This document shows, one piece after another, positions 899 through 61,507 of a stretch of DNA of 64,000 bases; positions within the stretch are counted from its first letter, which is position 1, and the number at the start of each line of letters is the position of its first letter. Below the pieces are notes generated by a model that was given only the letters and a program-made list of their open reading frames with translations, was not told the origin of the DNA and searched no databases. This DNA comes from a virus. The stretch is from IMG/VR virus record IMGVR_UViG_3300036799_000060. One strand, given 5' to 3'. The position numbers were made by a program, and so were the translations under genes.

Positions 899-932
899 TG
901 GACGATGATCCGACTACCGCCGGGGACACTGA

Positions 933-1205
933 ATGAGCCAGGCGTCGGGGACGGCTGTGGCGAACAGCCTCACCGGGCCGGTGGTGATGAGCCTGGCTGA
1001 CCTGGCTGGCTACCTGCATCCGCGTGTGAGCGAGGAGCAGCTACGGCGGATCTTCGCCCAGCTACCCGGGCTGAACCCGGTGGGCACCAGCCCGAACTCT
1101 TCCGGCCGTGGCCGCCCGGTGGACGTGTACGACGCGGCCACGGTACAGGAATGGCATGCAGCGAACCGGAGGTGGCTCTTATGGACGGCCCGCCCGTGGG
1201 GATGA
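933..1205 (+). CDS. hypothetical small protein, possibly DNA-binding
   Basis: Listed ORF with GC3 bias. Its stop overlaps the next start (ATGA at 1202-1205). The MSLADLAGYL...EEQLRRIF segment looks helix-turn-helix-like. Confidence 0.5.
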   Translation: MSQASGTAVANSLTGPVVMSLADLAGYLHPRVSEEQLRRIFAQLPGLNPVGTSPNSSGRGRPVDVYDAATVQEWHAANRRWLLWTARPWG

Positions 1206-20207: not shown

Positions 20208-20465
20208 GTGGCCGACGACATGCTGACGCACCGGCTGGAGGCCGTCTCGCGCGGCTACAGCCAGCACCACTACCGGGCCGCCGGTCCATGGACCGATGTG
20301 GGGATCGCCCGGCACCTGCACGGCATATGGGTGGAGGGCGCGGCGGGCCGCCACACGATCAGCCAGTCCTATTTCGGCCGGTACGACGCGGACACGGCAA
20401 CGGTGACCGGGCAGGGGGGCAAGCCGGTTCCGGTGACTCATGTCAGGCGGGCTGCCGGTGGCTGA
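20208..20465 (+). CDS. small hypothetical protein (85 aa)
   Basis: GTG 20208 preceded by GGGAGGG. Begins VADDMLTHRLEA, nearly identical to the start of the next gene. Confidence 0.45.
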   Translation: MADDMLTHRLEAVSRGYSQHHYRAAGPWTDVGIARHLHGIWVEGAAGRHTISQSYFGRYDADTATVTGQGGKPVPVTHVRRAAGG

Positions 20466-23934: not shown

Positions 23935-24051
23935 CCAAACCCCTAGCTACACCGCCGAGTGTGCGGGGATCGGCTCCCGCGACGGCGTGGCCCCGGCCGT
24001 GATCCACGGGGCACCCACATTCCCTCTCCCCCCGGCCAGGAGATCAAGCAG

Positions 24052-25965
24052 ATGGAACTGATCAAGCAGCGTCCCAAGATGCTGTGGCACAGCAACGACC
24101 CCCAGTCGGACACCGGTTACGGGGTGGAAACGGCGCTGTTCGCGCCGCGCATCCGCGACGCCGGGTGGGACATCGTGCTGTCGTGCATGGGCGGCGGGTA
24201 CGGCCCGCACGAGTGGGAGGGCATCACCTGCCTGCCACCGGGGATGACGCCGTTCTCCACTGACATCCTCGCCTCTCACGCTGTGCACCATTTCGGCCGT
24301 GACCCGGGTCTGGTGCTGGTGCACTATGACGCGTGGGCGATCGGCCCGGAGGCCGTGGCCGGGCTGGCCTGCGCCGCGTGGTCCCCGGTGCACTCGCACG
24401 GGATGAGCCGGGGGGACAAGCTGTTTTACCGGCTGTCCGGCGCCTACCCGATCTCCTACAGCCTGCACGGTGTGCGGATGATGCAGGCGGCTGGGCTGGA
24501 GCCCGCCTATGTGCCGCACGGTGTGGACACGTCGCTGTTCCGGCCACAGTCCCCGGAGGAGCGGCAGGCGGCCCGGGAACGGTTCGGGATCTCCCCGGAG
24601 ACGTTCGTGGTGGGGATGGTGGCCGCGAACAAGGGCACCGACCCGCCGCGTAAGGCGTGGGGCGAAGTCATGGCGGCGTTCGCCGCGTTCCACGACCGGC
24701 ACCCGGACTCGCTGCTGTTCGCGCACACTCTGGCCGCGACGCCGGACGGGTACGGCCTGGACTTGCGCCCGCTGATCCGCCACTACGGGCTCGGCGATGC
24801 GGTGCTGTTCAGCGACGACTACGGGCAGGTTGCCAACTTCTACACGCAGGGGTATGTGTCGCGGATCACCGGCCTGGCTGACGTGTTCCTGAACCCGTCC
24901 TACGGGGAAGGGTTCGGCCTCGGCCCGGTGCAGGCGCAGGCGTGCGGCGTGCCGGTGATCGTCGGCGACAACTCGGCCCAGACTGAGCTGTGCGGCTCCG
25001 GGTGGCTGGTGGACTGCCAGCCGTACTGGCATCCCCGCGATGAGGCGAACTGGTATGTGCCGTTCATCGCCTCCATTGAGAAGGCGCTGGAGAAGGCTTA
25101 CCGGGTGTCGCGGCAGCCAGCGCAGCGGGACAAGCTGGCCCGGCGGGCACGCGCGTTCGCGGAGGGCTACGACGCCGACCTGGTGATGAACACGTACTGG
25201 AAGCCCGCGCTCGAAATGCTGGAGCAACTGTGCGGCGCGGCGCTGGTGCGGCCACCTGCCAAGGCGGCGGTGCCGCTGCCCACGGTGGAATCGGACGGGC
25301 TGCGGTGGCTGGCCAGGGGGCCGCACACCGACGACTGGATTTCGGTCGGGCACGAGGACACGCTGGCCCCGGTGCTCGCCGCGCTGTTCCCATCTGACGG
25401 GGTGCTGCTGGACGTGGGCGCGCACGTCGGCCGGTGGGCGCTGCGGCTGGCCGGGCGGGCTAGCCAGGTCATCGCGGTGGAGGCGATGCCGGACACGGCC
25501 GCGTCGCTGCGCTACCACATCGCCCTGAACGGCATTGAGAACGTCGCGGTGATGGAGGTAGCCGCGTGGGACGTGCCGGACAAGCTGATCATGGCGGACA
25601 AGAACCGGCGGGTGACCGGCGGGTCGACCAAGGCGTTCGAGCGTGACGAGGTTCCCGACGGCGAGGGCGTGCAGGTTGAGGCGATACCGCTGGACGCGCT
25701 GCTTGACGAGGTGGAGCGGATCGACCTGGTCAAGCTGGACGTGGAGGGCGCCGACCTGAAGGCCCTGTGGGGGATGCGGGAGACGCTGGCCCGGCTGCGC
25801 CCGGTCCTGTTCATCGAAGATCACTCGATTTACGGCTACTACACCCAGGCCGAGCTTTACGACCTGCTCGAAGAACTGGGCTATGACGTGCAGCCGTTCA
25901 CCGCGCACCTGGCCGGGGACCGGGTGGCGCCGTATGCGATTGCCCGGCCGAAAGCGGAGGTGTGA
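24052..25965 (+). CDS. glycosyltransferase (GT-B/GT4-like) fused to FkbM-family methyltransferase
   Basis: ATG 24052 follows CCAGGAG. The N-terminal approximately 400 aa carry NPSYGEGFGLGPVQAQACGVPVIVGD (the GT4 E-x7-E region). The C-terminal approximately 200 aa carry LLDVGAHVGRWALRLA...VEAMPDT...IDLVKLDVEGADL (FkbM signature). Confidence 0.8.
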   Translation: MELIKQRPKMLWHSNDPQSDTGYGVETALFAPRIRDAGWDIVLSCMGGGYGPHEWEGITCLPPGMTPFSTDILASHAVHHFGRDPGLVLVHYDAWAIGPEAVAGLACAAWSPVHSHGMSRGDKLFYRLSGAYPISYSLHGVRMMQAAGLEPAYVPHGVDTSLFRPQSPEERQAARERFGISPETFVVGMVAANKGTDPPRKAWGEVMAAFAAFHDRHPDSLLFAHTLAATPDGYGLDLRPLIRHYGLGDAVLFSDDYGQVANFYTQGYVSRITGLADVFLNPSYGEGFGLGPVQAQACGVPVIVGDNSAQTELCGSGWLVDCQPYWHPRDEANWYVPFIASIEKALEKAYRVSRQPAQRDKLARRARAFAEGYDADLVMNTYWKPALEMLEQLCGAALVRPPAKAAVPLPTVESDGLRWLARGPHTDDWISVGHEDTLAPVLAALFPSDGVLLDVGAHVGRWALRLAGRASQVIAVEAMPDTAASLRYHIALNGIENVAVMEVAAWDVPDKLIMADKNRRVTGGSTKAFERDEVPDGEGVQVEAIPLDALLDEVERIDLVKLDVEGADLKALWGMRETLARLRPVLFIEDHSIYGYYTQAELYDLLEELGYDVQPFTAHLAGDRVAPYAIARPKAEV

Positions 25966-44548: not shown

Positions 44549-45406
44549 ATGAGCCTGCTCGGTGCTGACTACGCGTTCTTCCCGCATCCGCCGATCGCCG
44601 CGCTGAAGGCCGCCGGGGTCAGGTTCGTGGTGCGGTACGTCTCGTCCCTGCCGGTGAACGACACCAACGGCAAGAACCTGCTCAGCGGCGAGTGCAAGGC
44701 CCTGCTCGCGGCCGGTATCGCGGTGTGTGTCGTCGCGGAGGAGGGCGCTTCGCGGATGCTCGGCGGCAAGTCCGCCGGGGTCGCGGATGCCAAGCACGCC
44801 GATCAGGTGACGACGGCGCTCGGCCTGAAGGGCATCCCGGTGTACTTCGCGTGTGACTTCGATGCCAGCGAGGCCAACCAGGGGCCGATCAATGCCTACC
44901 TGGACGGTGCCGCGTCGGTGGTCAGCCGTGGCCGGACCGGCCTGTACGGCGGCTACTGGCCGGTGTCGCGGGCGCTGGACGCGGGCAAGTGCGCCTACGC
45001 GTGGCAGACGCTCGCCTGGTCGGGTGGGCACTGGGATGCGCGCGCGAACATGCGCCAGTTCCTTGCCTTCACCGTCGGCGGCCTGGCGATCGACAAGGAC
45101 ACCACGGCCGCCGGGCACGCGGGGCTCGCCGATGACTTCGGCCAGTGGCCCCGGCCCAAGGTGGTGGAGCCGCCGGTCACGCCAGCTACCCCCACCAAGG
45201 TGTTCGCCAACGGCCATCAGTCGTGGCGGCAGCTCGCCCACGCCCACGGCACGACGGTCGACCGGGCGCTGTGGCTGACTGCCGTCAACCAGCCTGACGG
45301 GTACAGCCGCCCCCGTCAGGTCGCCTACATCCAGGCAGGCGACTGGAACGCGGTCATGCCAGGCCCGCACGGTACGACTGCGGGTATGGCGATGTGGGTT
45401 GGCTGA
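44549..45406 (+). CDS. endolysin, DUF1906/Rv2525c-like glycoside hydrolase domain plus C-terminal domain
   Basis: GADYAFFPHPPIAALKAAGVRFVVRYVS...PVYFACDFDA...GLYGGYW matches the TIM-barrel glycosidase-like DUF1906 pattern. It sits immediately upstream of the holin. Confidence 0.65.
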   Translation: MSLLGADYAFFPHPPIAALKAAGVRFVVRYVSSLPVNDTNGKNLLSGECKALLAAGIAVCVVAEEGASRMLGGKSAGVADAKHADQVTTALGLKGIPVYFACDFDASEANQGPINAYLDGAASVVSRGRTGLYGGYWPVSRALDAGKCAYAWQTLAWSGGHWDARANMRQFLAFTVGGLAIDKDTTAAGHAGLADDFGQWPRPKVVEPPVTPATPTKVFANGHQSWRQLAHAHGTTVDRALWLTAVNQPDGYSRPRQVAYIQAGDWNAVMPGPHGTTAGMAMWVG

Positions 45407-53474: not shown

Positions 53475-53550
53475 TGGAGGCGCTGGCGGGACTCGAACCC
53501 GCGACTTACAGCTTTGCAGGCTGCACCATTGGCCGCTCTGGCACAGCGCC
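53475..53550 (-). tRNA. tRNA-Cys(GCA)
   Basis: The reverse complement folds as a 76-nt cloverleaf. Acceptor GGCGCTG/CAGCGCC, anticodon loop CT-GCA-AA, T-arm GCGGG-TTCGAGT-CCCGC, CCA encoded. Confidence 0.9.
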
Positions 53551-53651
53551 GTGGTGGACCCCCCGGGCTTCCAACCCAACCCGGGAGCACGGGGCTCGCG
53601 CGGGGAGTCCGTGGACCGATACCGCTGCGCAAGCGGCCGGTGCTCCAACCG

Positions 53652-53725
53652 TGGGCGCGGCCGGATTCGAACCGGCACCGCGTGGCTTAGGAGGCCACGG
53701 CTCTGTCCAGTTGAGCTACGCGCTC
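53652..53725 (-). tRNA. tRNA-Arg(CCT)
   Basis: D-arm GCTC/GAGC, anticodon stem GTGGC/GCCAC, loop CT-CCT-AA, T-arm GCCGG-TTCGAAT-CCGGC. The acceptor has one A2xC71 mismatch. Confidence 0.85.
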
Positions 53726-53726
53726 G

Positions 53727-53800
53727 TGCGGCTGGCGGGACTCGAACCCGCAACCCCCAGCTTCGGAAGCTGGCGCTCTGTCCTGTTGGGCTACAGCCAC
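53727..53800 (-). tRNA. tRNA-Arg(CCG)
   Basis: Acceptor GTGGCTG/CAGCCGC, stem CCAGC/GCTGG, loop TT-CCG-AA, T-arm GCGGG-TTCGAGT-CCCGC. Confidence 0.85.
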
Positions 53801-53801
53801 G

Positions 53802-53882
53802 TGCCAGGTGAGGGAATCGAACCCCCGGCGCCCGTAGGCGACTGCTTTACAGGCAGCGAAGCGGCCATCGCTAACCCCTGGC
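53802..53882 (-). tRNA. tRNA-Tyr(GTA), type II
   Basis: 81 nt. Loop CT-GTA-AA, long variable arm CGCC-TAC-GGCG, T-arm GGGGG-TTCGATT-CCCTC. Confidence 0.85.
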
Positions 53883-53883
53883 T

Positions 53884-53960
53884 TGGGGAGGGTGACGGGA
53901 CTCGAACCCGCAAGGGGCTGGCTCACAACCAGGTGCCCGATCCGTCTGGCTTCACCCACC
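53884..53960 (-). tRNA. tRNA-His(GTG)
   Basis: Extra 5' G(-1) opposite C73, loop TT-GTG-AG, T-arm GCGGG-TTCGAGT-CCCGT, CCA encoded. Confidence 0.85.
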
Positions 53961-53961
53961 G

Positions 53962-54034
53962 TGGGCGGTGCTGGACTCGAACCAGCGGCCTGCCGGGTGT
54001 GGACCGGCTGCTCTCCCAACTGAGCTAATCGCCC
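53962..54034 (-). tRNA. tRNA-Val(CAC), C at position 33
   Basis: Acceptor GGGCGAT/ACCGCCC, D-arm GCTC/GAGC, stem GCCGG/CCGGC, loop TC-CAC-AC, T-arm GCTGG-TTCGAGT-CCAGC. Confidence 0.8.
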
Positions 54035-54094
54035 GTGCGGTGAGGGGGGCCGGGTGCTCGCAAGCATGGACCGGGGTTAACTTCCCTCACCTCG

Positions 54095-54167
54095 TACGCC
54101 CGGAGGGATTCGAACCCCCATCTGACTGATTCGTAGTCAGCCGCTCTGTCCATTGAGCTACAGACGC
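54095..54167 (-). tRNA. tRNA-Arg(ACG)
   Basis: D-arm GCTC/GAGC, stem GCTGA/TCAGT, loop CT-ACG-AA, T-arm GGGGG-TTCGAAT-CCCTC. The acceptor has three G-U pairs. Confidence 0.8.
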
Positions 54168-54288
54168 TCGGTCGGTCCAGCGGCAGCCCGGCACTCGATT
54201 ACGGTCACTGTGCCGGTGCCCGGGGAAGCGTTAACCGCCTGTGCCGCCTGCCGGGCGAGGGAGCCTAGGACCACTCCCGCTGAACCGG

Positions 54289-54360
54289 TGGGTGACGCAG
54301 GGATCGAACCTGCGGCCTCCGCCTTGTCGGGGCGGTGCTCTCCCGCTGAGCTAGACACCC
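54289..54360 (-). tRNA. tRNA-Val(GAC), C at position 33
   Basis: D-arm GCTC/GAGC, stem CCGCC/GGCGG, loop CC-GAC-AA, T-arm GCAGG-TTCGATC-CCTGC. Confidence 0.8.
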
Positions 54361-54392
54361 GGGGGAGGGCTGAAGGCACGCCTTCGCCCTCG

Positions 54393-54466
54393 CGGGACCG
54401 ACGGGACTCGAACCCGCCCTACCGGGTTGACAACCCGGCGTGCTGACCGCGTGACACTACGGCCCC
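54393..54466 (-). tRNA. tRNA-Asp(GTC)
   Basis: Acceptor GGGGCCG/CGGTCCC, stem CCGGG/CCCGG, loop TT-GTC-AA, T-arm GCGGG-TTCGAGT-CCCGT. Confidence 0.85.
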
Positions 54467-54476
54467 ATGTTGTGCG

Positions 54477-54549
54477 CTCCTGCGGCAGGATTCGAACCTG
54501 CACCTCTCGCCTTAACAGGACGCTGCCCTACCAGTTGGGCTACGCAGGA
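54477..54549 (-). tRNA. tRNA-Asn(GTT)
   Basis: Acceptor TCCTGCG/CGCAGGA, D-arm GCCC/GGGC, loop CT-GTT-AA, T-arm GCAGG-TTCGAAT-CCTGC. Confidence 0.85.
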
Positions 54550-54580
54550 AAGACCGGTGGCCATCAGTACCCTTCAAGCC

Positions 54581-54964
54581 ATGCCCCACAAAGATCCTGA
54601 GGCGCGGCGGGCCTACCACCGTGACTACATGCGCAAGCGGCACGCGGAAGATGCCGAGGCCCGCAAGCTCCAGCTTGCGCGGGTGAAGCGGAACAACGAT
54701 CGGTACGCGGCGGCTAAGCGGGCCTGGTATGACGCCTACCTTGCCGAGCATCCCTGTGTGGACTGCGGCGAGGCCGACCCCGAGGTGCTGGACTTCGACC
54801 ACATCCCCGGGCGTGGCCCCAAACTGGCCAACGTGTCGGTGCTACTCCAGCAGCACTACTCGCTTCGCCGCCTCATAGCCGAGGTGGCGCTATGCGAGGT
54901 GCGCTGCGCGAACTGCCATCGCCGCATCACCCGGCGGCGCGAGCGCGAGGCGCTGGCCGCCTAG
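54581..54964 (+). CDS. HNH endonuclease (127 aa), antisense to the tRNA array
   Basis: ATG 54581. HPCVDCGEADPEVLDFDHIPGRGPKLANVS...CEVRCANCHRRIT is a clear HNH/zinc-finger core. Its stop at 54962-54964 abuts the tRNA at 54965. Confidence 0.8.
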   Translation: MPHKDPEARRAYHRDYMRKRHAEDAEARKLQLARVKRNNDRYAAAKRAWYDAYLAEHPCVDCGEADPEVLDFDHIPGRGPKLANVSVLLQQHYSLRRLIAEVALCEVRCANCHRRITRRREREALAA

Positions 54965-55042
54965 TTGCGGAGGTGGGATTCGAACCCACGATAGGCGCTG
55001 CTTATGAGACAGCCGAGGACGACCGAACTCCTCTACTCCGCA
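54965..55042 (-). tRNA. tRNA-Met(CAT) (elongator-like; Ile2 not excluded)
   Basis: Acceptor TGCGGAG/CTCCGCA, stem GCTGT/GCAGC, loop CT-CAT-AA, T-arm GTGGG-TTCGAAT-CCCAC. Unusually long D-loop (11 nt) and variable loop (7 nt). Confidence 0.75.
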
Positions 55043-55043
55043 G

Positions 55044-55121
55044 TGCCGTCGGCGGGAATCGAACCCGCGTCGTTTCCGAGTTGAAAGCCCGGCTGCCCCT
55101 GGCCATCAGAGCAACGACGGC
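55044..55121 (-). tRNA. tRNA-Glu(TTC)
   Basis: Acceptor GCCGTCG/CGACGGC, stem CCGGG/CTCGG, loop CT-TTC-AA, T-arm GCGGG-TTCGATT-CCCGC. 78 nt with a 7-nt variable loop. Confidence 0.75.
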
Positions 55122-55122
55122 G

Positions 55123-55194
55123 TGACCCCGGTGGGATTCGAACCCACACCGACCAGGCTGAGAACCTGGCATCCTTCCCGTAGACGACGGGGCC
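55123..55194 (-). tRNA. tRNA-Glu(CTC)
   Basis: Acceptor GGCCCCG/CGGGGTC, Glu-type short D-stem GTC...GAT, stem CCAGG/CCTGG, loop TT-CTC-AG, T-arm GTGGG-TTCGAAT-CCCAC. Confidence 0.8.
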
Positions 55195-55282
55195 TTGTGC
55201 GGCTCGGCCAGGCTGGCGTGCGGGGCCTTGCGGCACCGGGCAGTCTGCTGCCTGAGAGGCCAGTAAGTTCTGGCCGAGCCAG

Positions 55283-55356
55283 TGCATCGCCCCGGACTCG
55301 AACCGGGAACCCCGCCGGGTAGAAACCGGCCGCGCTGTCCGTTGCGCCAGCGATGC
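55283..55356 (-). tRNA. tRNA-Arg(TCT)
   Basis: Acceptor GCATCGC/GCGATGC, D-arm GCGC/GCGC, stem GCCGG/CCGGC, loop TT-TCT-AC, T-arm CCCGG-TTCGAGT-CCGGG. Confidence 0.85.
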
Positions 55357-55357
55357 G

Positions 55358-55430
55358 TGCCGTGCCAAGGACTCGAACCCTGCCACTCCGGGGTAAAAGC
55401 CCGGTGCCCAGCCAGCTAGGCGTACACGGC
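55358..55430 (-). tRNA. tRNA-Lys(TTT)
   Basis: Acceptor GCCGTGT/GCACGGC, stem CCGGG/CCCGG, loop CT-TTT-AC, T-arm CAGGG-TTCGAGT-CCTTG. Confidence 0.85.
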
Positions 55431-55431
55431 G

Positions 55432-55505
55432 TAGGCCAGTAGGGATTTGAACCCTCATCACCTGTTCATAAGGCAGGCGCACTAACCATGTTGTGCTACT
55501 GGCCG
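55432..55505 (-). tRNA. tRNA with anticodon TAT (Ile-AUA type), atypical and AT-rich
   Basis: D-arm GCAC/GTGC, T-loop TTCAAAT. The anticodon arm is CCTGC-CTTATGA-ACAGG with a C31xA39 mismatch and G37. Alternatively it folds as a 5-bp stem GCCTG/CAGGT with a 9-nt loop. The acceptor register is ambiguous (C1xT72, or shifted by 1 nt). Confidence 0.55.
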
Positions 55506-55506
55506 G

Positions 55507-55580
55507 TGGGCACCCTAGGGGTTGAACCTAGCTGCTACCGCCTTATCAGAGCGGCCTCGTCACCGGCTGAGTCGGTGCCC
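55507..55580 (-). tRNA. tRNA-Ile(GAT)
   Basis: Acceptor GGGCACC/GGTGCCC, stem CCGCT/GGCGG, loop CT-GAT-AA, T-arm CTAGG-TTCAACC-CCTAG. Confidence 0.85.
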
Positions 55581-55951
55581 TTGGCTCGCCAGCGGCGCAT
55601 ATAGCTGGCTTGCCATGCCCGGCGAAACGCCTTGCACTGTTCGCACGGGCACCGCCACCGGCCCACGCCGGATGGACACAGGGTGGCAGCGTAGTTCTCC
55701 TGGCTGGTCTTGTCCTGGTGGCAACCGGCTCCCCCGCAGAGAAGCTGGCACTTGTCAACCTCGGCCAGGAACCGGGGCAAGGCCCAGTTCGTGATCTCGG
55801 AGATGTTGGCCACCTTGGTGGCCGGATCGACGTGGTCGAAGTGGAGCCCGTCAGTGGTCCCACAGCCAGCGCAGTGCCCGCCAAGGCGGGCTCGGGCCAT
55901 CTCTAGCCGCTCGGCCCGGCGGCGGCGCTGGTATTCCGCGAAGTCGCGCAC
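55535..55951 (-). CDS. HNH endonuclease (138 aa)
   Basis: Listed ORF starting at GTG. HCAGCGTTDGLHFDHVDPATKVANIS...CQLLCGGAGCHQDKT. Its last approximately 15 codons overlap the 5' half of tRNA-Ile(GAT). Confidence 0.75.
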   Translation of the reverse strand: MRDFAEYQRRRRAERLEMARARLGGHCAGCGTTDGLHFDHVDPATKVANISEITNWALPRFLAEVDKCQLLCGGAGCHQDKTSQENYAATLCPSGVGRWRCPCEQCKAFRRAWQASYMRRWRAKGTDSAGDEAALIRR

Positions 55952-55984
55952 CTGGCCAGGTTATCAGGGTGCGCCTTCACTGGG

Positions 55985-56079
55985 AGGATGGGGCGGGATT
56001 CGAACCCGCACGGGGACTCCCGCCCCCTAACTGTTTTCGGGACAGCAGCCGGTAGGCCCAACCGTCGGCTTACCCATCC
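55985..56079 (-). tRNA. tRNA-Ser(CGA), type II, C at position 33
   Basis: Acceptor GGATGGG/CCCATCC, stem GCTGT/ACAGT, loop CC-CGA-AA, long variable arm GGGG-GCGGGAGT-CCCC, T-arm GCGGG-TTCGAAT-CCCGC. Oversized D-loop (about 16 nt), 95 nt in total. Confidence 0.7.
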
Positions 56080-56083
56080 ATCG

Positions 56084-56172
56084 CGGAAGGCGAGCGAATC
56101 GAACGCCCGCAGGACTCGCGCCCTGACCTCCGGTTAGCAACCGGGTGCCTTACCAGCCTCGGCCAGCCTTCC
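56084..56172 (-). tRNA. tRNA-Ser(GCT), type II
   Basis: Acceptor GGAAGGC/GCCTTCC, loop TT-GCT-AA, long variable arm, T-arm GGGCG-TTCGATT-CGCTC. 89 nt. Confidence 0.8.
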
Positions 56173-56182
56173 ATCGTGATGA

Positions 56183-56566
56183 TCACATCCGTGCCCGCCG
56201 CGCCCGCGCTCGGTTCCGGTTCCACGCCCGGCAGAGATCGCAATGGCACCTGTGGACGCAGTACATAGCTCGCGTGCCATGCCGGTACCCGGTGGCCTTG
56301 CTGGCGTTCTCGGCCAGCAGTTCGGTCTTGGTCTCGTGGCAGTAGTGGCATAGAACCTGGCACTTCGCCAGTTCTGCCTCGCGTCGCGCTTGCGCCCAAC
56401 TCCAGATCCGGTGACTGGCCTTGGCCAGTGCATTTTTGTGATCTAGCTCCAGGTCGTCCGTATCGCCACACCAGGCGCAGCGCTTGCCAGTGAACCATTC
56501 AGCGCGGCGCCGGGCCGCCCACTCCCGCTGGTACCTAGCCTGCTGGGCAGGATCGGCATAGGGCAT
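56183..56566 (-). CDS. HNH endonuclease (127 aa)
   Basis: Listed ORF. CAWCGDTDDLELDHKNALAKAS...CQVLCHYCHETKT. Confidence 0.75.
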   Translation of the reverse strand: MPYADPAQQARYQREWAARRRAEWFTGKRCAWCGDTDDLELDHKNALAKASHRIWSWAQARREAELAKCQVLCHYCHETKTELLAENASKATGYRHGTRAMYCVHRCHCDLCRAWNRNRARARRARM

Positions 56567-56592
56567 GTGTCCAGTCTAGCGGGCTGAACCTT

Positions 56593-56669
56593 TGGTAGCG
56601 CTCCGGGGACTCGAACCCCGAACACCCCGGGTCTGAGCCGGGTGGCTCTGCCAATTGGCCTAGAGCGCC
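56593..56669 (-). tRNA. tRNA with Leu anticodon CAG but class I (short variable loop) structure
   Basis: Acceptor GGCGCTC/GAGCGCT, D region TAGGCCAATTGGCAGAGCC, stem CCCGG/CCGGG, loop CT-CAG-AC, 5-nt variable GTGTT, T-arm CGGGG-TTCGAGT-CCCCG, A73, CCA encoded. Confidence 0.75.
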
Positions 56670-56670
56670 T

Positions 56671-56746
56671 TGGAGCGGCCGACGGGGATCGAACCCGCAT
56701 CCTCCACCTTGGCAAGGTGGTGCGCAGCCAGTTGCGCCACAACCGC
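56671..56746 (-). tRNA. tRNA-Gly(GCC)
   Basis: Acceptor GCGGTTG/CGGCCGC, D-arm GCGC/GCGC, stem CCACC/GGTGG, loop TT-GCC-AA, T-arm GCGGG-TTCGATC-CCCGT, CCA encoded. Confidence 0.85.
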
Positions 56747-56747
56747 A

Positions 56748-56819
56748 TGGAGCCCAACCCCGGTGCCGACCCGGGCGTCCCGTCCGTACCAGGGACGGGT
56801 GCGCGCTGGCGCGCTGGGC
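56748..56819 (-). tRNA. tRNA-Thr(GGT), miniaturised non-canonical form
   Basis: Acceptor GCCCAGC/GTTGGGC, D-hairpin GCGC-CAGC-GCGC (4-nt loop), loop CT-GGT-AC, T-arm CCCGG-GTCGGCA-CCGGG, T73, CCA encoded. Confidence 0.65.
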
Positions 56820-56823
56820 ATCG

Positions 56824-56895
56824 CTCCAGGGGCAGGGCTCGAACCTGCGTGATCCCGGTTCAAAGCCGGGGGTGGTAGCCGTCAACCACCCTGGA
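56824..56895 (-). tRNA. tRNA-Gln(TTG)
   Basis: Acceptor TCCAGGG/CCCTGGA (U1-A72), stem CCCGG/CCGGG, loop CT-TTG-AA, T-arm GCAGG-TTCGAGC-CCTGC. Confidence 0.85.
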
Positions 56896-56966
56896 TGGAG
56901 CCGCCTCCCGGTGCCGACCCGGGCCGCGCTGCTTACAGGGCAGCGGCCACGGCCGCGTGCGGCGGC
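56896..56966 (-). tRNA. tRNA-Thr(TGT), miniaturised non-canonical form, C33
   Basis: Acceptor GCCGCCG/AGGCGGC, D-hairpin CACG-CGGC-CGTG, stem GCTGC/GCAGC, loop CC-TGT-AA, T-arm CCCGG-GTCGGCA-CCGGG, T73, CCA encoded. Confidence 0.65.
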
Positions 56967-56970
56967 AAAG

Positions 56971-57044
56971 TGCCCCGGGCGGGAATCGAACCCGCAACAC
57001 CCGGCATCTCGGGCCGATGGCTCTGCCAGTTGGCCTACCAGGGC
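56971..57044 (-). tRNA. tRNA with Leu anticodon GAG, class I structure, C33
   Basis: Acceptor GCCCTGG/CCGGGGC, D region TAGGCCAACTGGCAGAGCC (paralogous to the CAG tRNA), stem TCGGC/GCCGG, loop CC-GAG-AT, variable GTGTT, T-arm GCGGG-TTCGATT-CCCGC, A73. Confidence 0.75.
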
Positions 57045-57115
57045 TGGAGCCGCCACCCGGTGCCGACCCGGGTCTCCCGCCTTACGGGGGCGGGGCCGCA
57101 GCCGTGCGCGGCGGC
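57045..57115 (-). tRNA. tRNA-Thr(CGT), miniaturised non-canonical form, C33
   Basis: Acceptor GCCGCCG/TGGCGGC, D-hairpin CGCA-CGGC-TGCG, stem CCGCC/GGCGG, loop CC-CGT-AA, T-arm CCCGG-GTCGGCA-CCGGG, T73, CCA encoded. Confidence 0.65.
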
Positions 57116-57119
57116 GAAG

Positions 57120-57193
57120 CTACCGGGGCTGGACTCGAACCAGCGGCGGCCAGGGTTCAGAGCCCTGGTTGGGATGCCAGCACCCACCCGGTA
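57120..57193 (-). tRNA. tRNA-Gln(CTG)
   Basis: Acceptor TACCGGG/CCCGGTA (U1-A72), stem CAGGG/CCCTG, loop CT-CTG-AA, T-arm GCTGG-TTCGAGT-CCAGC. Confidence 0.85.
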
Positions 57194-57198
57194 TCGCG

Positions 57199-57272
57199 TA
57201 GGCGGCGCGGGATTCGAACCCACAAGCACCAGGGTTTGAGCCTGGTCGCTCATCCGTTTGGCGTAGCCGCCC
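57199..57272 (-). tRNA. tRNA with Leu anticodon CAA, class I structure
   Basis: Acceptor GGGCGGC/GCCGCCT, stem CCAGG/CCTGG, loop CT-CAA-AC, 5-nt variable TGCTT, T-arm GTGGG-TTCGAAT-CCCGC, A73. Confidence 0.75.
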
Positions 57273-57276
57273 CTAG

Positions 57277-57350
57277 TACGCCCCGTGGGAGTCGAACCCA
57301 CACCCCGATCATTAAGAGTGACCTGCTCTGTCCAGTTAAGCTACGGGCGC
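57277..57350 (-). tRNA. tRNA-Lys(CTT)
   Basis: D-arm GCTT/GAGC, stem GGTCA/TGATC, loop CT-CTT-AA, T-arm GTGGG-TTCGACT-CCCAC. The acceptor has a G7xG66 mismatch. Confidence 0.8.
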
Positions 57351-57770
57351 TAGTCGATGGCTGCCGAACGTCCGCGCCGTACGACGGCGGTGATCGTTGG
57401 CGCAGACCACCTCACACTTGGCCATTTCCGCCACGATGGCGGCGAGGCCGTTCTTGCTGATCATGTCGCTGATGTTCGCCACCTTGTCGCCCTGGTGATC
57501 GAACTCCAGGACCACGATGTCCGTCTCCCCACAGTCCACGCACGGGTGCGTCCGCAGGTAGTCAGCGACTAGCCGTTGCGCCGCGCGCCTGTTCCGTTCC
57601 CGGCTGGTGGCCCTGGCCGCAGCGTGCCGCGTCCTTGTGGTGAGGTAGTACGCCGCGTTGTACGCGCTTTTGCACTCGCTGCACATGCTGTTGCGGCCAT
57701 CGGTGCGGGCGCGGTTCACCGGGAAGCCTGCCAGCGGCTTGTCCCGCTGGCACTTGTAGCAATGCTTCAC
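57336..57770 (-). CDS. HNH endonuclease (144 aa), paralog of 54581-54964
   Basis: GTG 57770 (VKHCYKCQRDKPL...). HPCVDCGETDIVVLEFDHQGDKVANIS...CEVVCANDHRRRT. Its 3' end overlaps the 5' end of tRNA-Lys(CTT) by about 15 nt. Confidence 0.75.
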   Translation of the reverse strand: MKHCYKCQRDKPLAGFPVNRARTDGRNSMCSECKSAYNAAYYLTTRTRHAAARATSRERNRRAAQRLVADYLRTHPCVDCGETDIVVLEFDHQGDKVANISDMISKNGLAAIVAEMAKCEVVCANDHRRRTARTFGSHRLAPVA

Positions 57771-57801
57771 GGCGTCAGAGCCTACGGCTAAGAGCCGACA
57801 G

Positions 57802-57877
57802 TGGAGCGGATGACAGGAATCGAACCTGCGTAGCCAGCTTGGAAGGCTGGAGCCTAATGCCATTCGGCCACATCCGC
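57802..57877 (-). tRNA. tRNA-Gly(TCC)
   Basis: Acceptor GCGGATG/CATCCGC, stem CCAGC/GCTGG, loop CT-TCC-AA, T-arm GCAGG-TTCGATT-CCTGT, CCA encoded. Confidence 0.85.
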
Positions 57878-57881
57878 ACAG

Positions 57882-57955
57882 TGACTCCCGCAGGGTTCGA
57901 ACCTGCCTACCTCCGGGGTTTCAGTCCGGCGCTCATCCACCTGAGCTAGAGAGCC
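57882..57955 (-). tRNA. tRNA-Phe(GAA)
   Basis: Acceptor GGCTCTC/GGGAGTC, D-arm GCTC..., loop CT-GAA-AC (A31xC39 mismatch), T-arm GCAGG-TTCGAAC-CCTGC. Confidence 0.8.
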
Positions 57956-57959
57956 ATAG

Positions 57960-58034
57960 TCGGGGCGGCGGGATTCGAACCCGCGATTACCTGCTCCCAA
58001 GGCAGGTGGCCTAGCCAAACTGGCCCACGCCCCA
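57960..58034 (-). tRNA. tRNA-Pro(TGG)
   Basis: Acceptor TGGGGCG/CGCCCCG, D-arm GGCC/GGCC, stem CCTGC/GCAGG, loop CT-TGG-GA, T-arm GCGGG-TTCGAAT-CCCGC. Confidence 0.85.
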
Positions 58035-58059
58035 TCACCGGGCCAGCTAGGCCCGTTCG

Positions 58060-58133
58060 TCTGGATGGCAGGATTCGAACCTGCGCCCTCGTGCACCCGA
58101 AGCACGCGCGCTACCAAGCTGCGCCACACCCAG
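58060..58133 (-). tRNA. tRNA-Pro(CGG)
   Basis: Acceptor CTGGGTG/CATCCAG (C1-G72), D-arm GCGC/GCGC, stem CGTGC/GCACG, loop TT-CGG-GT, T-arm GCAGG-TTCGAAT-CCTGC. Confidence 0.85.
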
Positions 58134-58138
58134 TCCAG

Positions 58139-58211
58139 TGGAGATGGTGGGACTCGAACCCACGGCCTCCCGGTTGCGGGCCGGGTGCCCTACCAATTGG
58201 GCCACATCCCC
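58139..58211 (-). tRNA. tRNA-Ala(CGC), C33
   Basis: Acceptor GGGGATG/CATCTCC with G3-U70, D-arm GCCC/GGGC, stem CCCGG/CCGGG, loop CC-CGC-AA, T-arm GTGGG-TTCGAGT-CCCAC. Confidence 0.8.
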
Positions 58212-58296
58212 AGGTAATTCGGCGCTGCGGGCACCGGTCGGCACACCCGCCGATCCTGGCGGACCTCGCCTTCCGGGGGATCAACCCGCAGCCCCG

Positions 58297-58368
58297 TGGA
58301 GCCGGTGAGATTCGAACTCACGACCGTCTGCCTGCCGGGCAGGTGCACTACCGCTGTGCTACGGCCCC
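58297..58368 (-). tRNA. tRNA-Ala(GGC), C33
   Basis: Acceptor GGGGCCG/CGGCTCC with G3-U70, D-arm GCAC/GTGC, stem (C)CTGC/GCAG(A), loop CC-GGC-AG, T-arm GTGAG-TTCGAAT-CTCAC. Confidence 0.8.
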
Positions 58369-58374
58369 TTGATA

Positions 58375-58406
58375 GGTGGCGGTTATCTCCGACGCTTCCC
58401 GCCACC
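58375..58406. other. hairpin inside the tRNA array
   Basis: 8-bp perfect stem GGTGGCGG / CCGCCACC with a 16-nt loop, in the 185-bp gap between tRNA-Trp and tRNA-Ala(GGC). Confidence 0.4.
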
Positions 58407-58490
58407 AGCCAGGCGCCTCTCGGCCGTGTGTAGCCGGGCGAAGACCTGGTGCCAGGCGGATGGCGCCGCCCGGCAAAGGTGAACACGCTG

Positions 58491-58502
58491 TTGAGTTCTC
58501 AA
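58491..58502. promoter_or_regulatory. palindrome TTGAG-TT-CTCAA in an A/T-richer island (candidate operator or internal promoter element)
   Basis: Read directly from the sequence. On the minus strand the context is CCTTGAGAACTCAACAGCG, and a similar CTTGAGA occurs at 8421-8427 upstream of gene 8432. Confidence 0.25.
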
Positions 58503-58553
58503 GGTGCGAGCCGGTTGCCTGCCGTTCCCTCCCGGGTCGGGCTGGTGGCTGCG

Positions 58554-58626
58554 CAGGGGCCGCAGGATTTGAACCCGCATCTGTCGGTTTTGGAGACCGG
58601 CGCTCTAGCCGTTGAGCTAGACCCCC
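58554..58626 (-). tRNA. tRNA-Trp(CCA)
   Basis: Acceptor GGGGGTC/GGCCCCT, D-arm GCTC/GAGC, loop CT-CCA-AA, T-arm GCGGG-TTCAAAT-CCTGC, G73. Confidence 0.8.
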
Positions 58627-58646
58627 ATGTTGTCCTGGTAAAGCTA

Positions 58647-58681
58647 GAAGCCGCCTCCCGGGGCTCCCGGGTGGCGGCTTC
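58647..58681. terminator. hairpin upstream (in the transcription sense) of tRNA-Trp
   Basis: 9-bp perfect stem GAAGCCGCC / GGCGGCTTC enclosing a CCCGGG-rich 17-nt loop. On the minus strand it is followed by TAGCTTTACC. Confidence 0.45.
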
Positions 58682-59021
58682 AGGTTGGGCCTGACGGTCC
58701 TCTACCCTGTTGCCGCCCCGGTGGGCTGCCCGATCGTGTCATAGCCGGACAGCAGCGAGCATGCAGTATGATTCGCTGCTTCTCGCCTGGTGGTCCGACT
58801 GCGTGTCACGGTGCTTGCCCTTCACCTCGTTCGGTGATCTCCTAAAGTACCTGCCCGTACACCGATGTGTCAAACGGGTTTTACGGCGGGAATGTTCCGG
58901 GCGGCTGGACGGCGCCGCCCCGGCCACCCAGAGGTGCAGCCGGGGGCGGGCCGCTGGCTCACATTAACCCGGGCGGCAGCGGCCGTCCAGGACCGGGATG
59001 CGTCCCCCGCCGGGAGACACC

Positions 59022-59100
59022 AGAACGGCCGCTGCGCCTCCCGGACACTGTACCCCCAGTCCTACATGGGTGTACCGCCAGGATGGCGCAGCGGCCGTTC
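59022..59100. repeat. 17-bp perfect inverted repeat AGAACGGCCGCTGCGCC / GGCGCAGCGGCCGTTCT separated by 45 nt
   Basis: Read directly. Lies in an approximately 420-bp region (58700-59121) with no convincing ORF. A third copy of CAGCGGCCGT lies at 58977-58986. Confidence 0.7.
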
Positions 59101-59121
59101 TGAGGCCCTTCACGGGTGGCG

Positions 59122-59388
59122 TCAGCCGCCTGCGCCTCCGCCGGTCGGGCCGGGCTGGTAGCCGCCGAACGCGGGCGCCTTCGCGGCGCCGTTGCCGGTG
59201 TCCGTCCACTGTTCCAGTGCCGTGATCGCCTCACCGAGCCCGGCGGCCTTGGCCTTCTCCTCGGTGGCCTTCGCCGGGTGGCTGTCCGCTAGCGACTTGG
59301 CCGCCCCGGTGTGCCCGCTGCGGAGCGACTTGAGGTAGCCGATCAGCGCGGCCCTGTCGCCCGAGATCGTCACCTGAACTTTGCTCAT
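59122..59388 (-). CDS. small hypothetical protein (88 aa), paralog of 59435-59653
   Basis: ATG 59388 (MSKVQVTISGDRAALIGYLKSLRSGH...ITALEQWTDTGNGA...). GC3 bias. Confidence 0.5.
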   Translation of the reverse strand: MSKVQVTISGDRAALIGYLKSLRSGHTGAAKSLADSHPAKATEEKAKAAGLGEAITALEQWTDTGNGAAKAPAFGGYQPGPTGGGAGG

Positions 59389-59434
59389 GCCGTTCACCTC
59401 CTTCCCGAGCTTCCGTCGCCGTCCACCGGGCCAG

Positions 59435-59653
59435 CTAGGCCGGTGGCTTGGCGCCGTCGCCCGTGTTCTCCCACGAGCGCAGGATCGCCAGCGACTCCTC
59501 CAGGCCCTCCGCCTGGTAGGTGTGCCGGTCCCGGTCCGACTTGCGCCGGGCGTCCGTCGCGGCCTCGTTGTGCGCGTCGCGCAAGCCCTCCAGGTACTCC
59601 ACGAGCCCCGCCTGGCTGCCCACTATGCGCACCGTCACTGCTGCTGATGCCAT
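59435..59653 (-). CDS. small hypothetical protein (72 aa), paralog of 59122-59388
   Basis: ATG 59653 (MASAAVTVRIVGSQAGLVEYLEGLRDAH...LAILRSWENTGDGA...). Same architecture as its neighbour. Confidence 0.5.
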   Translation of the reverse strand: MASAAVTVRIVGSQAGLVEYLEGLRDAHNEAATDARRKSDRDRHTYQAEGLEESLAILRSWENTGDGAKPPA

Positions 59654-59674
59654 GTCCAATCACCTCCCCTCCAG

Positions 59675-59747
59675 TGCCCCCGCCGGGAATCGAACCCGGG
59701 CCACCACGCCCCTAACGGCGGGTACCTCTCCATTGGGCTACGGGGGC
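59675..59747 (-). tRNA. tRNA with Leu-type anticodon TAG, class I, irregular anticodon arm
   Basis: Perfect acceptor GCCCCCG/CGGGGGC, T-arm CCCGG-TTCGATT-CCCGG, A73, short variable loop. The anticodon arm folds only as a 4-bp stem CGCC/GGCG with the 6-nt loop G-T-TAG-G. The D-stem is weak. Confidence 0.6.
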
Positions 59748-60647: not shown

Positions 60648-60899
60648 TCAGGCCGCCACCGGGTCGGGCTGCGGGTACCGCCGCGCCAGAGCCGACCCGG
60701 GGTAGATCGCCACAAGCTCGCCGACGATCCCCGGGTTCTCCGCCAGCACGTCACGGTAGTTGCGGGCACAGTCAGCACCCACGCCGAGCCGCCGCGCGGC
60801 CTGGTGCAGCGACATGCCGAGCACGCCCGTGAAGAACGCGAACTCCTCACACGAGGTGTAGAACTCCGGGGTGTGGCTCTGGGCTCCGATGCTGGGCAT
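60648..60899 (-). CDS. helix-turn-helix protein (83 aa)
   Basis: ATG 60899. FFTGVLGMSLHQAARRLGVGADCARNYRD is HTH-like. The start overlaps the upstream stop. Confidence 0.5.
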   Translation of the reverse strand: MPSIGAQSHTPEFYTSCEEFAFFTGVLGMSLHQAARRLGVGADCARNYRDVLAENPGIVGELVAIYPGSALARRYPQPDPVAA

Positions 60900-61507
60900 C
60901 ACGCCACCCCCTTGGCCGCCGCATACCAGGCGCGGATCGCCGACCGGCGCATCCGCCACTCACCCGGCGAGGTAGGCCACTTCGCCACATACTCGAACTT
61001 GAACGCCTGATACGGCAGCGGCGCCCAGCCGCCCGTGCACGTCCAGCACTTGCCGTACCGCTCGGGGTCCAGCAGATCCCGGGGGCCGTCGGCGGCCGGG
61101 TTGTACGGCCGGGCCGAGCCGGTGGGCGCGGACTGGTCGAAGATCACAAGCTGGGTGCCGTTGCACTCCGGGCAGCGGGCCTTGTCCGGGCCGAGCGCGG
61201 CGATCAGCAGCGACCGGGCACAGTCGGCCGGGCCGCTCCCCGCGTACCCCCAGCCCATGCCCGTCGGCGAATGGTGGGGGACGTGGGACACCATGCCGGT
61301 GACTTCCCCGGCGGGCGTCTCAGTCAGGACGATGCAGCCGCCCGTCTCCCGGTAGACGCCGTGGTAGATCACGTCATCGGGGCAGGTGACACGCTCGGGG
61401 TCTTCGGTGACGGCCTGCCCGTCGGCAAGCTCCAGGTAGTTCCTGTCACAGCACAGCAGGTCCAGGGCGGCCCCGCTGGCCAGGTGCGTCGCACCCATGA
61501 TGATCAC
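60899..61507 (-). CDS. DUF6166-like protein with C-terminal zinc-ribbon (202 aa)
   Basis: HSPTGMGWGYAGSGPADCARSLL is the motif I associate with DUF6166. CPECNG...CWTCTGG lies downstream. Confidence 0.5.
   Translation of the reverse strand: MIIMGATHLASGAALDLLCCDRNYLELADGQAVTEDPERVTCPDDVIYHGVYRETGGCIVLTETPAGEVTGMVSHVPHHSPTGMGWGYAGSGPADCARSLLIAALGPDKARCPECNGTQLVIFDQSAPTGSARPYNPAADGPRDLLDPERYGKCWTCTGGWAPLPYQAFKFEYVAKWPTSPGEWRMRRSAIRAWYAAAKGVA

Follow-up and report, generated by a model that had tools for sequence, protein, structure and literature searches.

Outside organelles, few natural transfer RNAs (tRNAs) with remodelled cores are known: tRNA-Sec, tRNA-Pyl and the allo-tRNAs. The three genes described here lie in a 64,000-nucleotide (nt) stretch of viral DNA (IMG/VR record IMGVR_UViG_3300036799_000060; the whole stretch is referred to as the window) and specify compact RNAs with threonine anticodons. 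Their closest architectural counterpart is tRNA-Pyl, followed by mammalian mitochondrial tRNA-Ser(UCN), and the compact family is a member of neither. Shared with tRNA-Pyl are a very short connector, a small D-loop, an anticodon stem of 6 base pairs (bp), a variable loop of about 3 nt, a T-loop that is not of the T-Psi-C type and a body of about 69 nt (PMC7609411). tRNA-Pyl itself carries a CUA anticodon, is read by a dedicated synthetase (PylRS), has a 1-nt connector and is without G18G19. The compact family, in contrast, has Thr anticodons (CGT, TGT, GGT) and Thr identity, usually a 0-nt connector, a C-G-G-C D-loop and the retained bases U55 and C56, and no aminoacyl-tRNA synthetase was recognised in the window; the resemblance, which concerns the compact core, implies no homology. 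Mammalian mitochondrial tRNA-Ser(UCN) also combines a 1-nt connector with a small D-loop, a 6-bp anticodon stem, a short variable loop and preserved D/T elbow bases (PMC7609411), but it is organellar, A/U-rich, of Ser identity and provided with a T-Psi-C T-loop, whereas the compact family is G+C-rich, bacterial or phage-borne and characterised by G54 and G58. tRNA-Sec has a 4-nt D-loop compatible with elbow contacts (PMC7609411), but its D-stem is 6 bp long, its acceptor/T branch is 8/5 or 9/4, its variable arm is long and it uses special factors; the D-stem seen here has 4 bp and the branch is 7/5. The allo-tRNAs and the (8/4) tRNA-Ser/His (Mukai et al., PMC5389517) are likewise non-canonical cloverleaves from phage tRNA clusters that standard tools miss, some of them functional in translation; their novelty lies in the acceptor/T branch (8/4, 9/3), whereas the compact family keeps the canonical 7/5 branch and is remodelled in the D-arm, core and T-loop. 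With canonical tRNA-Thr (Rfam RF00005) the family has in common the anticodons, A37, the pairs G1-C72, C2-G71 and C3-G70, U73, the 7/5 branch and the position in the array. It differs by the absence of U8/N9 and A14, a D-loop of 4 instead of 7-11 nt, G54/G58, an extra 26:44 pair and a score below the RF00005 threshold (gathering threshold, 29 bits). No published description of a compact tRNA-Thr was found in the literature searched, in line with the initial annotation, made from the sequence alone, which knew of no such class among bacteriophage tRNAs; coverage of the literature was incomplete and "undescribed" is provisional.

All three genes lie on the minus strand, which amends the initial annotation; their positions and anticodons (GGT, TGT, CGT) stand as first given. 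Compact tRNA-Thr(GGU), or W1, occupies positions 56748-56819 and has a 69-nt body and an encoded CCA; tRNA-Thr(UGU), or W2 (56896-56966), and tRNA-Thr(CGU), or W3 (57045-57115), each have a 68-nt body followed by CCA. Read 5' to 3' by structural segment, W1 (56819-56748) is GCCCAGC GCGC CAGC GCGC ACC CGTCC CTGGTAC GGACG GGACG CCCGG GTCGGCA CCGGG GTTGGGC T CCA; W2 (56966-56896) is GCCGCCG CACG CGGC CGTG GCC GCTGC CCTGTAA GCAGC GCGG CCCGG GTCGGCA CCGGG AGGCGGC T CCA; and W3 (57115-57045) is GCCGCCG CGCA CGGC TGCG GCC CCGCC CCCGTAA GGCGG GAGA CCCGG GTCGGCA CCGGG TGGCGGC T CCA. The D-hairpin, delimited from the sequence and from covariation in the family, is GCGC-CAGC-GCGC in W1 (56801-56812), where it follows the acceptor stem with no 8/9 connector, CACG-CGGC-CGTG in W2 (56948-56959) and CGCA-CGGC-TGCG in W3 (57097-57108). 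The anticodons are at 56788-56790 (GGT), 56935-56937 (TGT) and 57084-57086 (CGT). The T-arm, CCCGG-GTCGGCA-CCGGG with G54 and G58, is at 56759-56775 in W1, 56907-56923 in W2 and 57056-57072 in W3; this 17-nt sequence occurs three times against 0.19 occurrences expected. Hairpin and T-arm sequences, G54/G58, T73, the encoded CCA and the 68-69-nt bodies all agree with the earlier description, and other parts of it hold in some copies only. A 7-bp acceptor stem followed by a 4-bp hairpin with a 4-nt loop is present in W1 and W3, whereas the acceptor stem of W2 consists of 6 bp and a G7-A66 mismatch. A 4-nt variable loop is found in W2 and W3, that of W1 having 5 nt. The 3-nt linker, 5-bp anticodon stem and 7-nt anticodon loop are there, but the arm is less "normal" than proposed, given C33 in W2 and W3 and the additional pair 26:44 (see below).

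Relatives were sought by sequence pattern. Scanning IMG/VR for the exact T-arm 17-mer gave 13 loci, and in five contigs the whole architecture recurs with different stems; the other eight loci are chance matches in coding DNA. The arrays of the five contigs are syntenic with that of the window (Trp-Ala-Pro-Phe-Gly-Lys-Leu(caa)-Gln(ctg)-[Thr CGT]-Leu(gag)-[Thr TGT]-Gln(ttg)-[Thr GGT]-Gly(gcc)), and further compact Thr genes sit in the gaps that ARAGORN leaves in them. A skeleton pattern (G1C2C3, D-loop C.G, G53-GYCGGCA-C61, GGC-U73) with the anticodon left free yielded 19 viral matches that passed a four-helix filter, all with an NGT anticodon, plus three that were mis-registered in parsing. 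With G35-U36 additionally fixed, the same skeleton found 24 true members in genome assemblies. Matches that failed the helix filter (46 of 65 viral, 100 of 124 genomic) had no common loop and were attributed to chance. A search for GTCGGCA T-loops in relatives had been proposed in the initial annotation; in all, 55 homologues, 51 of them distinct, were collected from 36 sources: IMG/VR viral contigs, many metagenome-assembled genomes (MAGs) of Actinomycetota, one Streptosporangiaceae MAG and two cultured actinomycetes, Actinoallomurus iriomotensis NBRC 103681 and Actinomadura scrupuli KCTC 19488. All copies but one degenerate member have a Thr anticodon; among the 51 distinct sequences, CGT is found in 22, TGT in 21, GGT in seven and the degenerate CAT in one. 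Family G+C content ranges from 67 to 84%, and in relatives CCA is encoded by only about half of the compact genes. Members are nearly always inside arrays of 10-33 tRNA genes, several of these arrays being cut by locus or contig ends; in a few viral contigs (L019, L022, L025, L027, L055) a solitary compact Thr(TGT) is the lone tRNA. When a 901-nt region, and W3 by itself, were compared with deposited phages and plasmids by megablast and blastn, the compact genes remained unmatched and only neighbouring canonical tRNAs were hit. Only a small number of window proteins have counterparts in the related loci, which made protein synteny of no use for retrieving relatives. Conservation of the class extends over divergent actinobacterial phages and mobile tRNA arrays, including phages whose proteins have largely diverged. 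In the two cultured isolates the immediate array flanks look chromosomal rather than phage-like, so that these arrays look like what has been called "tRNA array units" or "L-arrays" in Mycobacterium and other phyla (PMC5966550, PMC8421152). One MAG contig, L171, carries a canonical tRNA-Thr(cgt) at 931-1006 (plus strand), about 4 kb outside its array, which could be a host gene and the integration site of the array-bearing element.

The fold is supported by covariation throughout the family. Plain MAFFT placed the length difference in the D-arm and not in the variable loop, and was replaced by model-guided alignments (A4, A5). Across the 51 distinct sequences, standard pairs fill 98.9% of helix cells, a figure that falls to 37-47% once the 3' partners are shifted by 1-3 columns, and both-sided changes are seen at 17 of the 21 pairs, the remaining four never varying; these pair counts overstate independence, the alignment being fitted to the model and the sequences being related. 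In the D-hairpin, 4/4 pairs covary and 99.5% of cells are paired; in the T-stem, pairing is 100% with 4/5 pairs covarying. The covariation score was 0.67, compared with 0.17 in shuffled alignments, and none of 500 shuffles reached it. RNAalifold independently returned the same four helices plus a pair (26:44) that joins the final base of the linker to the one with which the variable loop begins. This pair, C26-G44 in the window genes, is formed in 49 of 55 copies by five pair types. Counting it lengthens the anticodon stem to an effective 6 bp and leaves 2 nt for the linker between D-stem and anticodon stem and 3-4 nt for the variable loop. The family architecture is a four-helix cloverleaf with a 7-bp acceptor stem, a connector of 0-1 nt, a 4-bp D-stem with a 4-nt loop, a 7-nt anticodon loop and a 5-bp T-stem. 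The 1-nt connector is rare (variants L022, L025 and L027); L088:2282 combines it with a 6-nt D-loop and still has the GTCGGCA T-loop, and L128:6907 joins a compact D-arm to a canonical TTCGACC T-loop. That the compact Thr genes represent a selected, covarying, non-canonical architecture and not decay, as the initial annotation had argued from compensatory changes in three D-hairpins, is strongly supported by these alignments.

Conservation in the loops called for revision of two further statements. The asserted lack of G18G19 is doubtful: GG is present in the D-loops of W2 and W3 (C-G-G-C; C-A-G-C in W1), and the third loop base is G in all three. Family-wide, the D-loop reads C (51/51), G (49) or A (2), G (51/51), C (48) or U (3), with an extra U in seven sequences. 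Nor did the G18G19 pair disappear jointly with its partners at 55/56, as had been proposed. The T-loop consensus, with occurrences among the 51 sequences, is G54 (48), U55 (49), C56 (51), G57 (50), G58 (48), C59 (51) and A60 (49), so both partners persist beside the invariant third D-loop G. The real joint change affects positions 54 and 58, which are G/G in 48 sequences, C/A in two and U/A in one; A58 occurs only where position 54 is not G. To judge from these three variant sequences, G54 and G58 may contact each other where T54-A58 would otherwise form a reverse-Hoogsteen pair. A search for covariation of D-loop position 2 (G/A) with T-loop position 55 (U/C) revealed no pattern in the five sequences in which either or both differ. 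In tRNA-Sec, a 4-nt D-loop still makes contacts of the G19:C56 type (PMC7609411), and by analogy the D-loop/T-loop elbow contacts may survive here as well. Against the general tRNA core, then, positions 8/9 are absent, positions 54 and 58 are altered and U33 is found in 38 of 51 sequences. C33 is present in the other 13, W2 and W3 included, always together with C32 (loops CCTGTAA/C or CCCGTAA).

ARAGORN and Rfam, which the initial annotation had named as a check, both leave gaps of 71-72 nt exactly at the three Thr coordinates. At an 80% threshold (-ps80), ARAGORN calls W1, W2 and W3 as Thr; its mitochondrial modes (-mt, -mtmam) do not find them. RF00005 gave no match over the three genes at E ≤ 10 in the interval 56700-57160 (461 nt). 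Some relatives (in L009, L088, L100, L152 and L165) are called by ARAGORN at default. Two covariance models were built from the family. R1, made from eleven 68-nt members, scored family members of the window and viral loci at 50-92 bits; with genome loci added, the lowest family score was 44.6 bits (L100:5998, a CTCGACA T-loop variant), and ordinary tRNAs scored at most 42 bits. R2 was made from 23 sequences, none from the window. Run with filters off over all 64 kb, it found exactly the three genes, W3 at 85.7, W2 at 77.8 and W1 at 55.2 bits (E 1e-17 to 1e-10), the next match scoring 21 bits. W1 (R2 E-value, 1.4e-10) was in the seed of neither model. Some long-arm tRNAs of related arrays, Ser or Tyr by ARAGORN (for example L100:3263-3345, L152:3810-3899 and L088:2966-3053), score best in Rfam as tRNA-Sec, that of L100 narrowly exceeding the gathering score with 47.5 bits; such matches are probably artefacts caused by the long variable arm.

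Conserved bases outside the core point to threonine. G1-C72, C2-G71, C3-G70, U36 and U73 are invariant (51/51), and G35 and A37 are each found in 50 of 51 sequences. G1-C72 and C2-G71 we take to be specific Thr identity pairs, from the E. coli and T. thermophilus sets. Canonical Thr tRNAs of related arrays share the GCC...GGC-U ends and the anticodon loops with the compact genes. Identity for Thr resides in acceptor-stem base pairs and anticodon nucleotides, position 73 being of little weight (PMC9976931). The compact and canonical forms also replace one another in the arrays: the same syntenic slot is compact in some and canonical in others, and in about 16 arrays with all three Thr anticodons each anticodon occurs exactly once, in one form or the other. 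L003, for instance, has a compact CGT gene with canonical GGT and TGT, and L024, L032, L069 and L165 have a compact TGT gene with canonical CGT and GGT. Overall, compact genes outnumber canonical ones for CGT (24 vs 5) and TGT (23 vs 5), and the reverse is true of GGT (7 vs 15). The initial annotation would have been undermined by canonical Thr tRNAs at these positions in relatives combined with loss of the compact form; canonical genes do fill some slots, and the compact form is widely conserved. Slot interchange without duplication of anticodons is what functional equivalence predicts, and is not expected from a decoy, processing punctuation or a pseudogene.

The array of the window leads in the same direction. 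It extends from 53475 to 59747 on the minus strand and contains 34 genes called by ARAGORN (29 by RF00005) which, with the three compact genes, make 37 in about 6.3 kb; a "tRNA array unit" is a dense cluster of at least 20 tRNA genes (PMC4758250). All 20 amino acids are represented only when the compact genes are counted, and neither ARAGORN, RF00005 nor R2 revealed a further Thr tRNA in the window. Threonine codons make up 810 of 13,529 codons (6.0%) in the likely genes of the window (ACC 361, ACG 350, ACT 55, ACA 44). The compact units are embedded like any other: the distance to neighbours is 0-3 nt, as for every other array gene, W1 being 3 nt from Gln(ttg) and 1 nt from Gly(gcc), W2 abutting Gln(ttg) and W3 abutting Leu(gag) with gaps of 0 nt. 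A full CCA is encoded by only about eight of the 37 genes, namely those for Cys, His, Leu-cag, Gly-gcc and Gly-tcc and the three compact Thr genes.

Taken together, the three genes are most probably functional elongator tRNAs-Thr (GGU, UGU, CGU) with a remodelled compact core, a reading drawn from comparative sequence data. They would be co-transcribed with the array and excised by RNase P and 3'-processing enzymes. The products would fold into an L-shape in which the D-loop G's dock on U55/C56 and a G54-G58 contact replaces T54-A58. With no aminoacyl-tRNA synthetase or other tRNA enzyme recognised in the window, host threonyl-tRNA synthetase (ThrRS) is the presumed partner; it would charge the compact tRNAs through the invariant G1-C72, C2-G71, C3-G70 and G35-U36, and these would then decode phage ACN codons. 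The core would be free to change because ThrRS reads only the acceptor stem and the anticodon.

Several observations weigh against this interpretation. ARAGORN at default and RF00005 make no call at the three sites, and of 20 compact genes in eight other arrays none is among the RF00005 matches listed at E ≤ 1. The single-sequence minimum free energy structure given by RNAfold is the cloverleaf for W1 only; those of W2 and W3 differ from it, with non-significant z-scores (+0.21, -0.75). Single-sequence folding is uninformative because the RNA is 80% GC, and comparative data were relied upon instead, the independence of which, as stated above, is overstated by the pair counts. We know of no solved precedent for a 0-nt connector between acceptor and D stems. 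W2 has the acceptor mismatch, and both W2 and W3 have C33 in place of the near-universal U33. A few relatives look degenerate: L081:2317 (66 nt, CAT anticodon) and a copy in L003 with a C6-A67 mismatch. Finally, Pfam and PHROGs detected no aminoacyl-tRNA synthetase, CCA-adding enzyme, ligase or nuclease near the array, which leaves the compact genes with no independent tie to translation from a tRNA-handling neighbour.

Accepting a function in translation, one may ask what drove the remodelling. Foremost among the conjectures is evasion of some host factor that recognises tRNA-Thr by its canonical D-arm or core. Alternatively, the compact form, whose stems are very G+C-rich, may have become independent of host modification enzymes, since it lacks U8, T54, A58 and the dihydrouridine sites, and hence the places where s4U8, dihydrouridine, m5U54 and m1A58 would be made. 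In the adaptive version of the first idea, which refines rather than replaces the elongator reading, the compact core would be invisible to a host nuclease or modifier that is directed at tRNA-Thr and reads the canonical D-arm, core or T-loop. We regard this as a possibility worth tentative consideration. tRNA arrays in phages and actinobacterial mobile elements have been viewed as counter-defence (PMC10264068, PMC12803027), the PARIS effector AriB cleaves host tRNA-Thr(UGU) strongly and tRNA-Thr(CGU) weakly, with a phage T5 Thr variant contributing to escape (PMC12409363), and a Thr(GGU)-specific toxin exists (PMC13617354). It seems in keeping with this that the compact form dominates for CGT and TGT and not for GGT. 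T5 tRNA-Thr(UGU) resembles the present genes as a phage tRNA-Thr that differs from the host copy and has a plausible role in an arms race (PMC12409363). It is, however, a cloverleaf of canonical type that carries point changes close to the cleavage site at 40/41, whereas in the compact family the whole core is restructured and the link to defence is hypothetical. Known escapes are indeed point changes at the anticodon-arm cleavage site and not remodelling of the core (PMC12409363, PMC10264068); the likely hosts are not known to have a Thr-directed nuclease, many arrays contain both forms of Thr gene, and the anticodon loops of the two are alike. The further proposal that these genes form an undescribed class of bacterial-type elongators, with a tRNA-Pyl-like core, a G54-G58 T-loop, no 8/9 connector and Thr identity, maintained in actinobacterial phages and mobile tRNA arrays to keep Thr decoding when a host immune effector attacks or withholds canonical tRNA-Thr, is more speculative still, and we hold it to be rather unlikely as it stands.

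It is improbable that the compact RNAs are tRNA-like molecules without a role in translation, serving as processing punctuation, as decoys for a host factor or ThrRS, or as regulatory RNAs. Their core is non-canonical and is rejected by general tRNA models, two window copies have C33, and some irregular polycistronic tRNAs are charged and yet not used in translation (PMC5389517). If the compact genes were discounted, however, the otherwise complete array of the window would be left without Thr. Conservation covers all three Thr anticodons, A37 and the ThrRS identity pairs, and the anticodon-by-anticodon complementation with canonical genes is not needed for a decoy or for punctuation. Decaying pseudogenes of canonical Thr tRNAs, with the D-arm partly lost, could account for the shortened D-arm, the altered T-loop and the few imperfect relatives. 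Such a reading is effectively refuted by the covariation: pairing is nearly complete in the 51 distinct sequences, compensatory changes are found in every helix, loops and identity bases are conserved, and the family persists across phages with largely diverged proteins; the sequence diversity also argues against one recent clone. Scarcely credible, too, is a repeated DNA element (a target for homing endonucleases or recombination, or a REP-like palindrome) that merely looks like a tRNA, since neither the exact threefold repetition of the T-arm 17-mer nor the presence of HNH-motif open reading frames (ORFs) in the array outweighs the facts that RNA-level pairing is conserved and DNA sequence is not (T-stems vary: CCCGG/CCGGG, TTCGG/CCGAA, GACGG/CCGTC, ACTGG/CCAGT and others), that the anticodons are always Thr and that compensatory changes contradict it.

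The remainder of the window, which has a G+C content of about 69%, includes a structural module of tailed-phage type. A portal gene lies at 13957-15456, a prohead protease domain within 20440-22368 and an HK97-type capsid gene at 22426-23934, whose product shows only about 30% identity to its counterparts in Mycobacterium, Gordonia and Rhodococcus phages; at 44549-45406 a lysin domain resembling Rv2525c is encoded. A 668-amino-acid ORF (23959-25965, plus strand) that directly follows the capsid gene combines two domains, a group-1 glycosyltransferase and a methyltransferase of the FkbM type, and its product may glycosylate the virion. A gene for a DUF6166 protein (E 1.5e-15) is found at 60899-61507 (minus strand), immediately upstream of the array region. 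Within the array, HNH-like motifs such as HFDHVDPATKVANISE and EFDHQGDKVANISDMI were seen by eye in minus-strand ORFs at 55535-55951, 57336-57863 and about 56180-56570; none of these ORFs had a Pfam hit at E ≤ 0.01, and PHROGs likewise left the motifs of the first two unconfirmed. These ORFs may be homing endonucleases that interrupt the array. Other array genes are also unusual. ARAGORN reports a "tRNA-???" at 59674-59747 (minus strand), about 1 kb upstream of the remaining array, with a 6-nt anticodon loop, a 2-base "anticodon" (ta) and the acceptor stem GCCCCCG; Rfam does not call this element, possibly a degenerate tRNA or a further non-canonical one. Ser(gct) is called at two adjacent places, 55983-56079 and 56083-56172 (minus strand). 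In the 97-nt call, the anticodon stem pairs poorly, the variable region is long and unstructured and the Rfam score is only 33 bits. No UCN-reading Ser tRNA was called in the window array, and the anticodons cga, gga or tga occur in related arrays. The tRNA-Ile at 55433-55504 (minus strand), with TAT as its genomic anticodon, recurs at the same array position in L001, L100 and L119 and is, with 53% GC, unusually A/T-rich for the genome.

For annotation, the consequence is that carriers of these arrays look as if they had no Thr tRNA, because the Rfam tRNA model and ARAGORN at default skip the compact genes; the family covariance model separates the class cleanly (at least 44.6 bits, against at most 42 for ordinary tRNAs). 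The family has kept a standard synthetase identity set but has lost U8/N9, T54, A58 and the greater part of the D-loop, and amounts to a natural experiment on the minimal core for bacterial translation, and the co-variation of positions 54 and 58 defines a specific, testable tertiary contact. tRNA-Thr is the target of at least two known toxin or defence systems, and the bias of the compact form towards the UGU and CGU isoacceptors offers a concrete lead. The two cultured carrier strains make the class experimentally tractable. If the proposals made here are true, the compact genes would provide a natural compact tRNA scaffold read by a standard aminoacyl-tRNA synthetase, and would be the first case in which remodelling of the whole core, not point mutation, serves as tRNA counter-defence.

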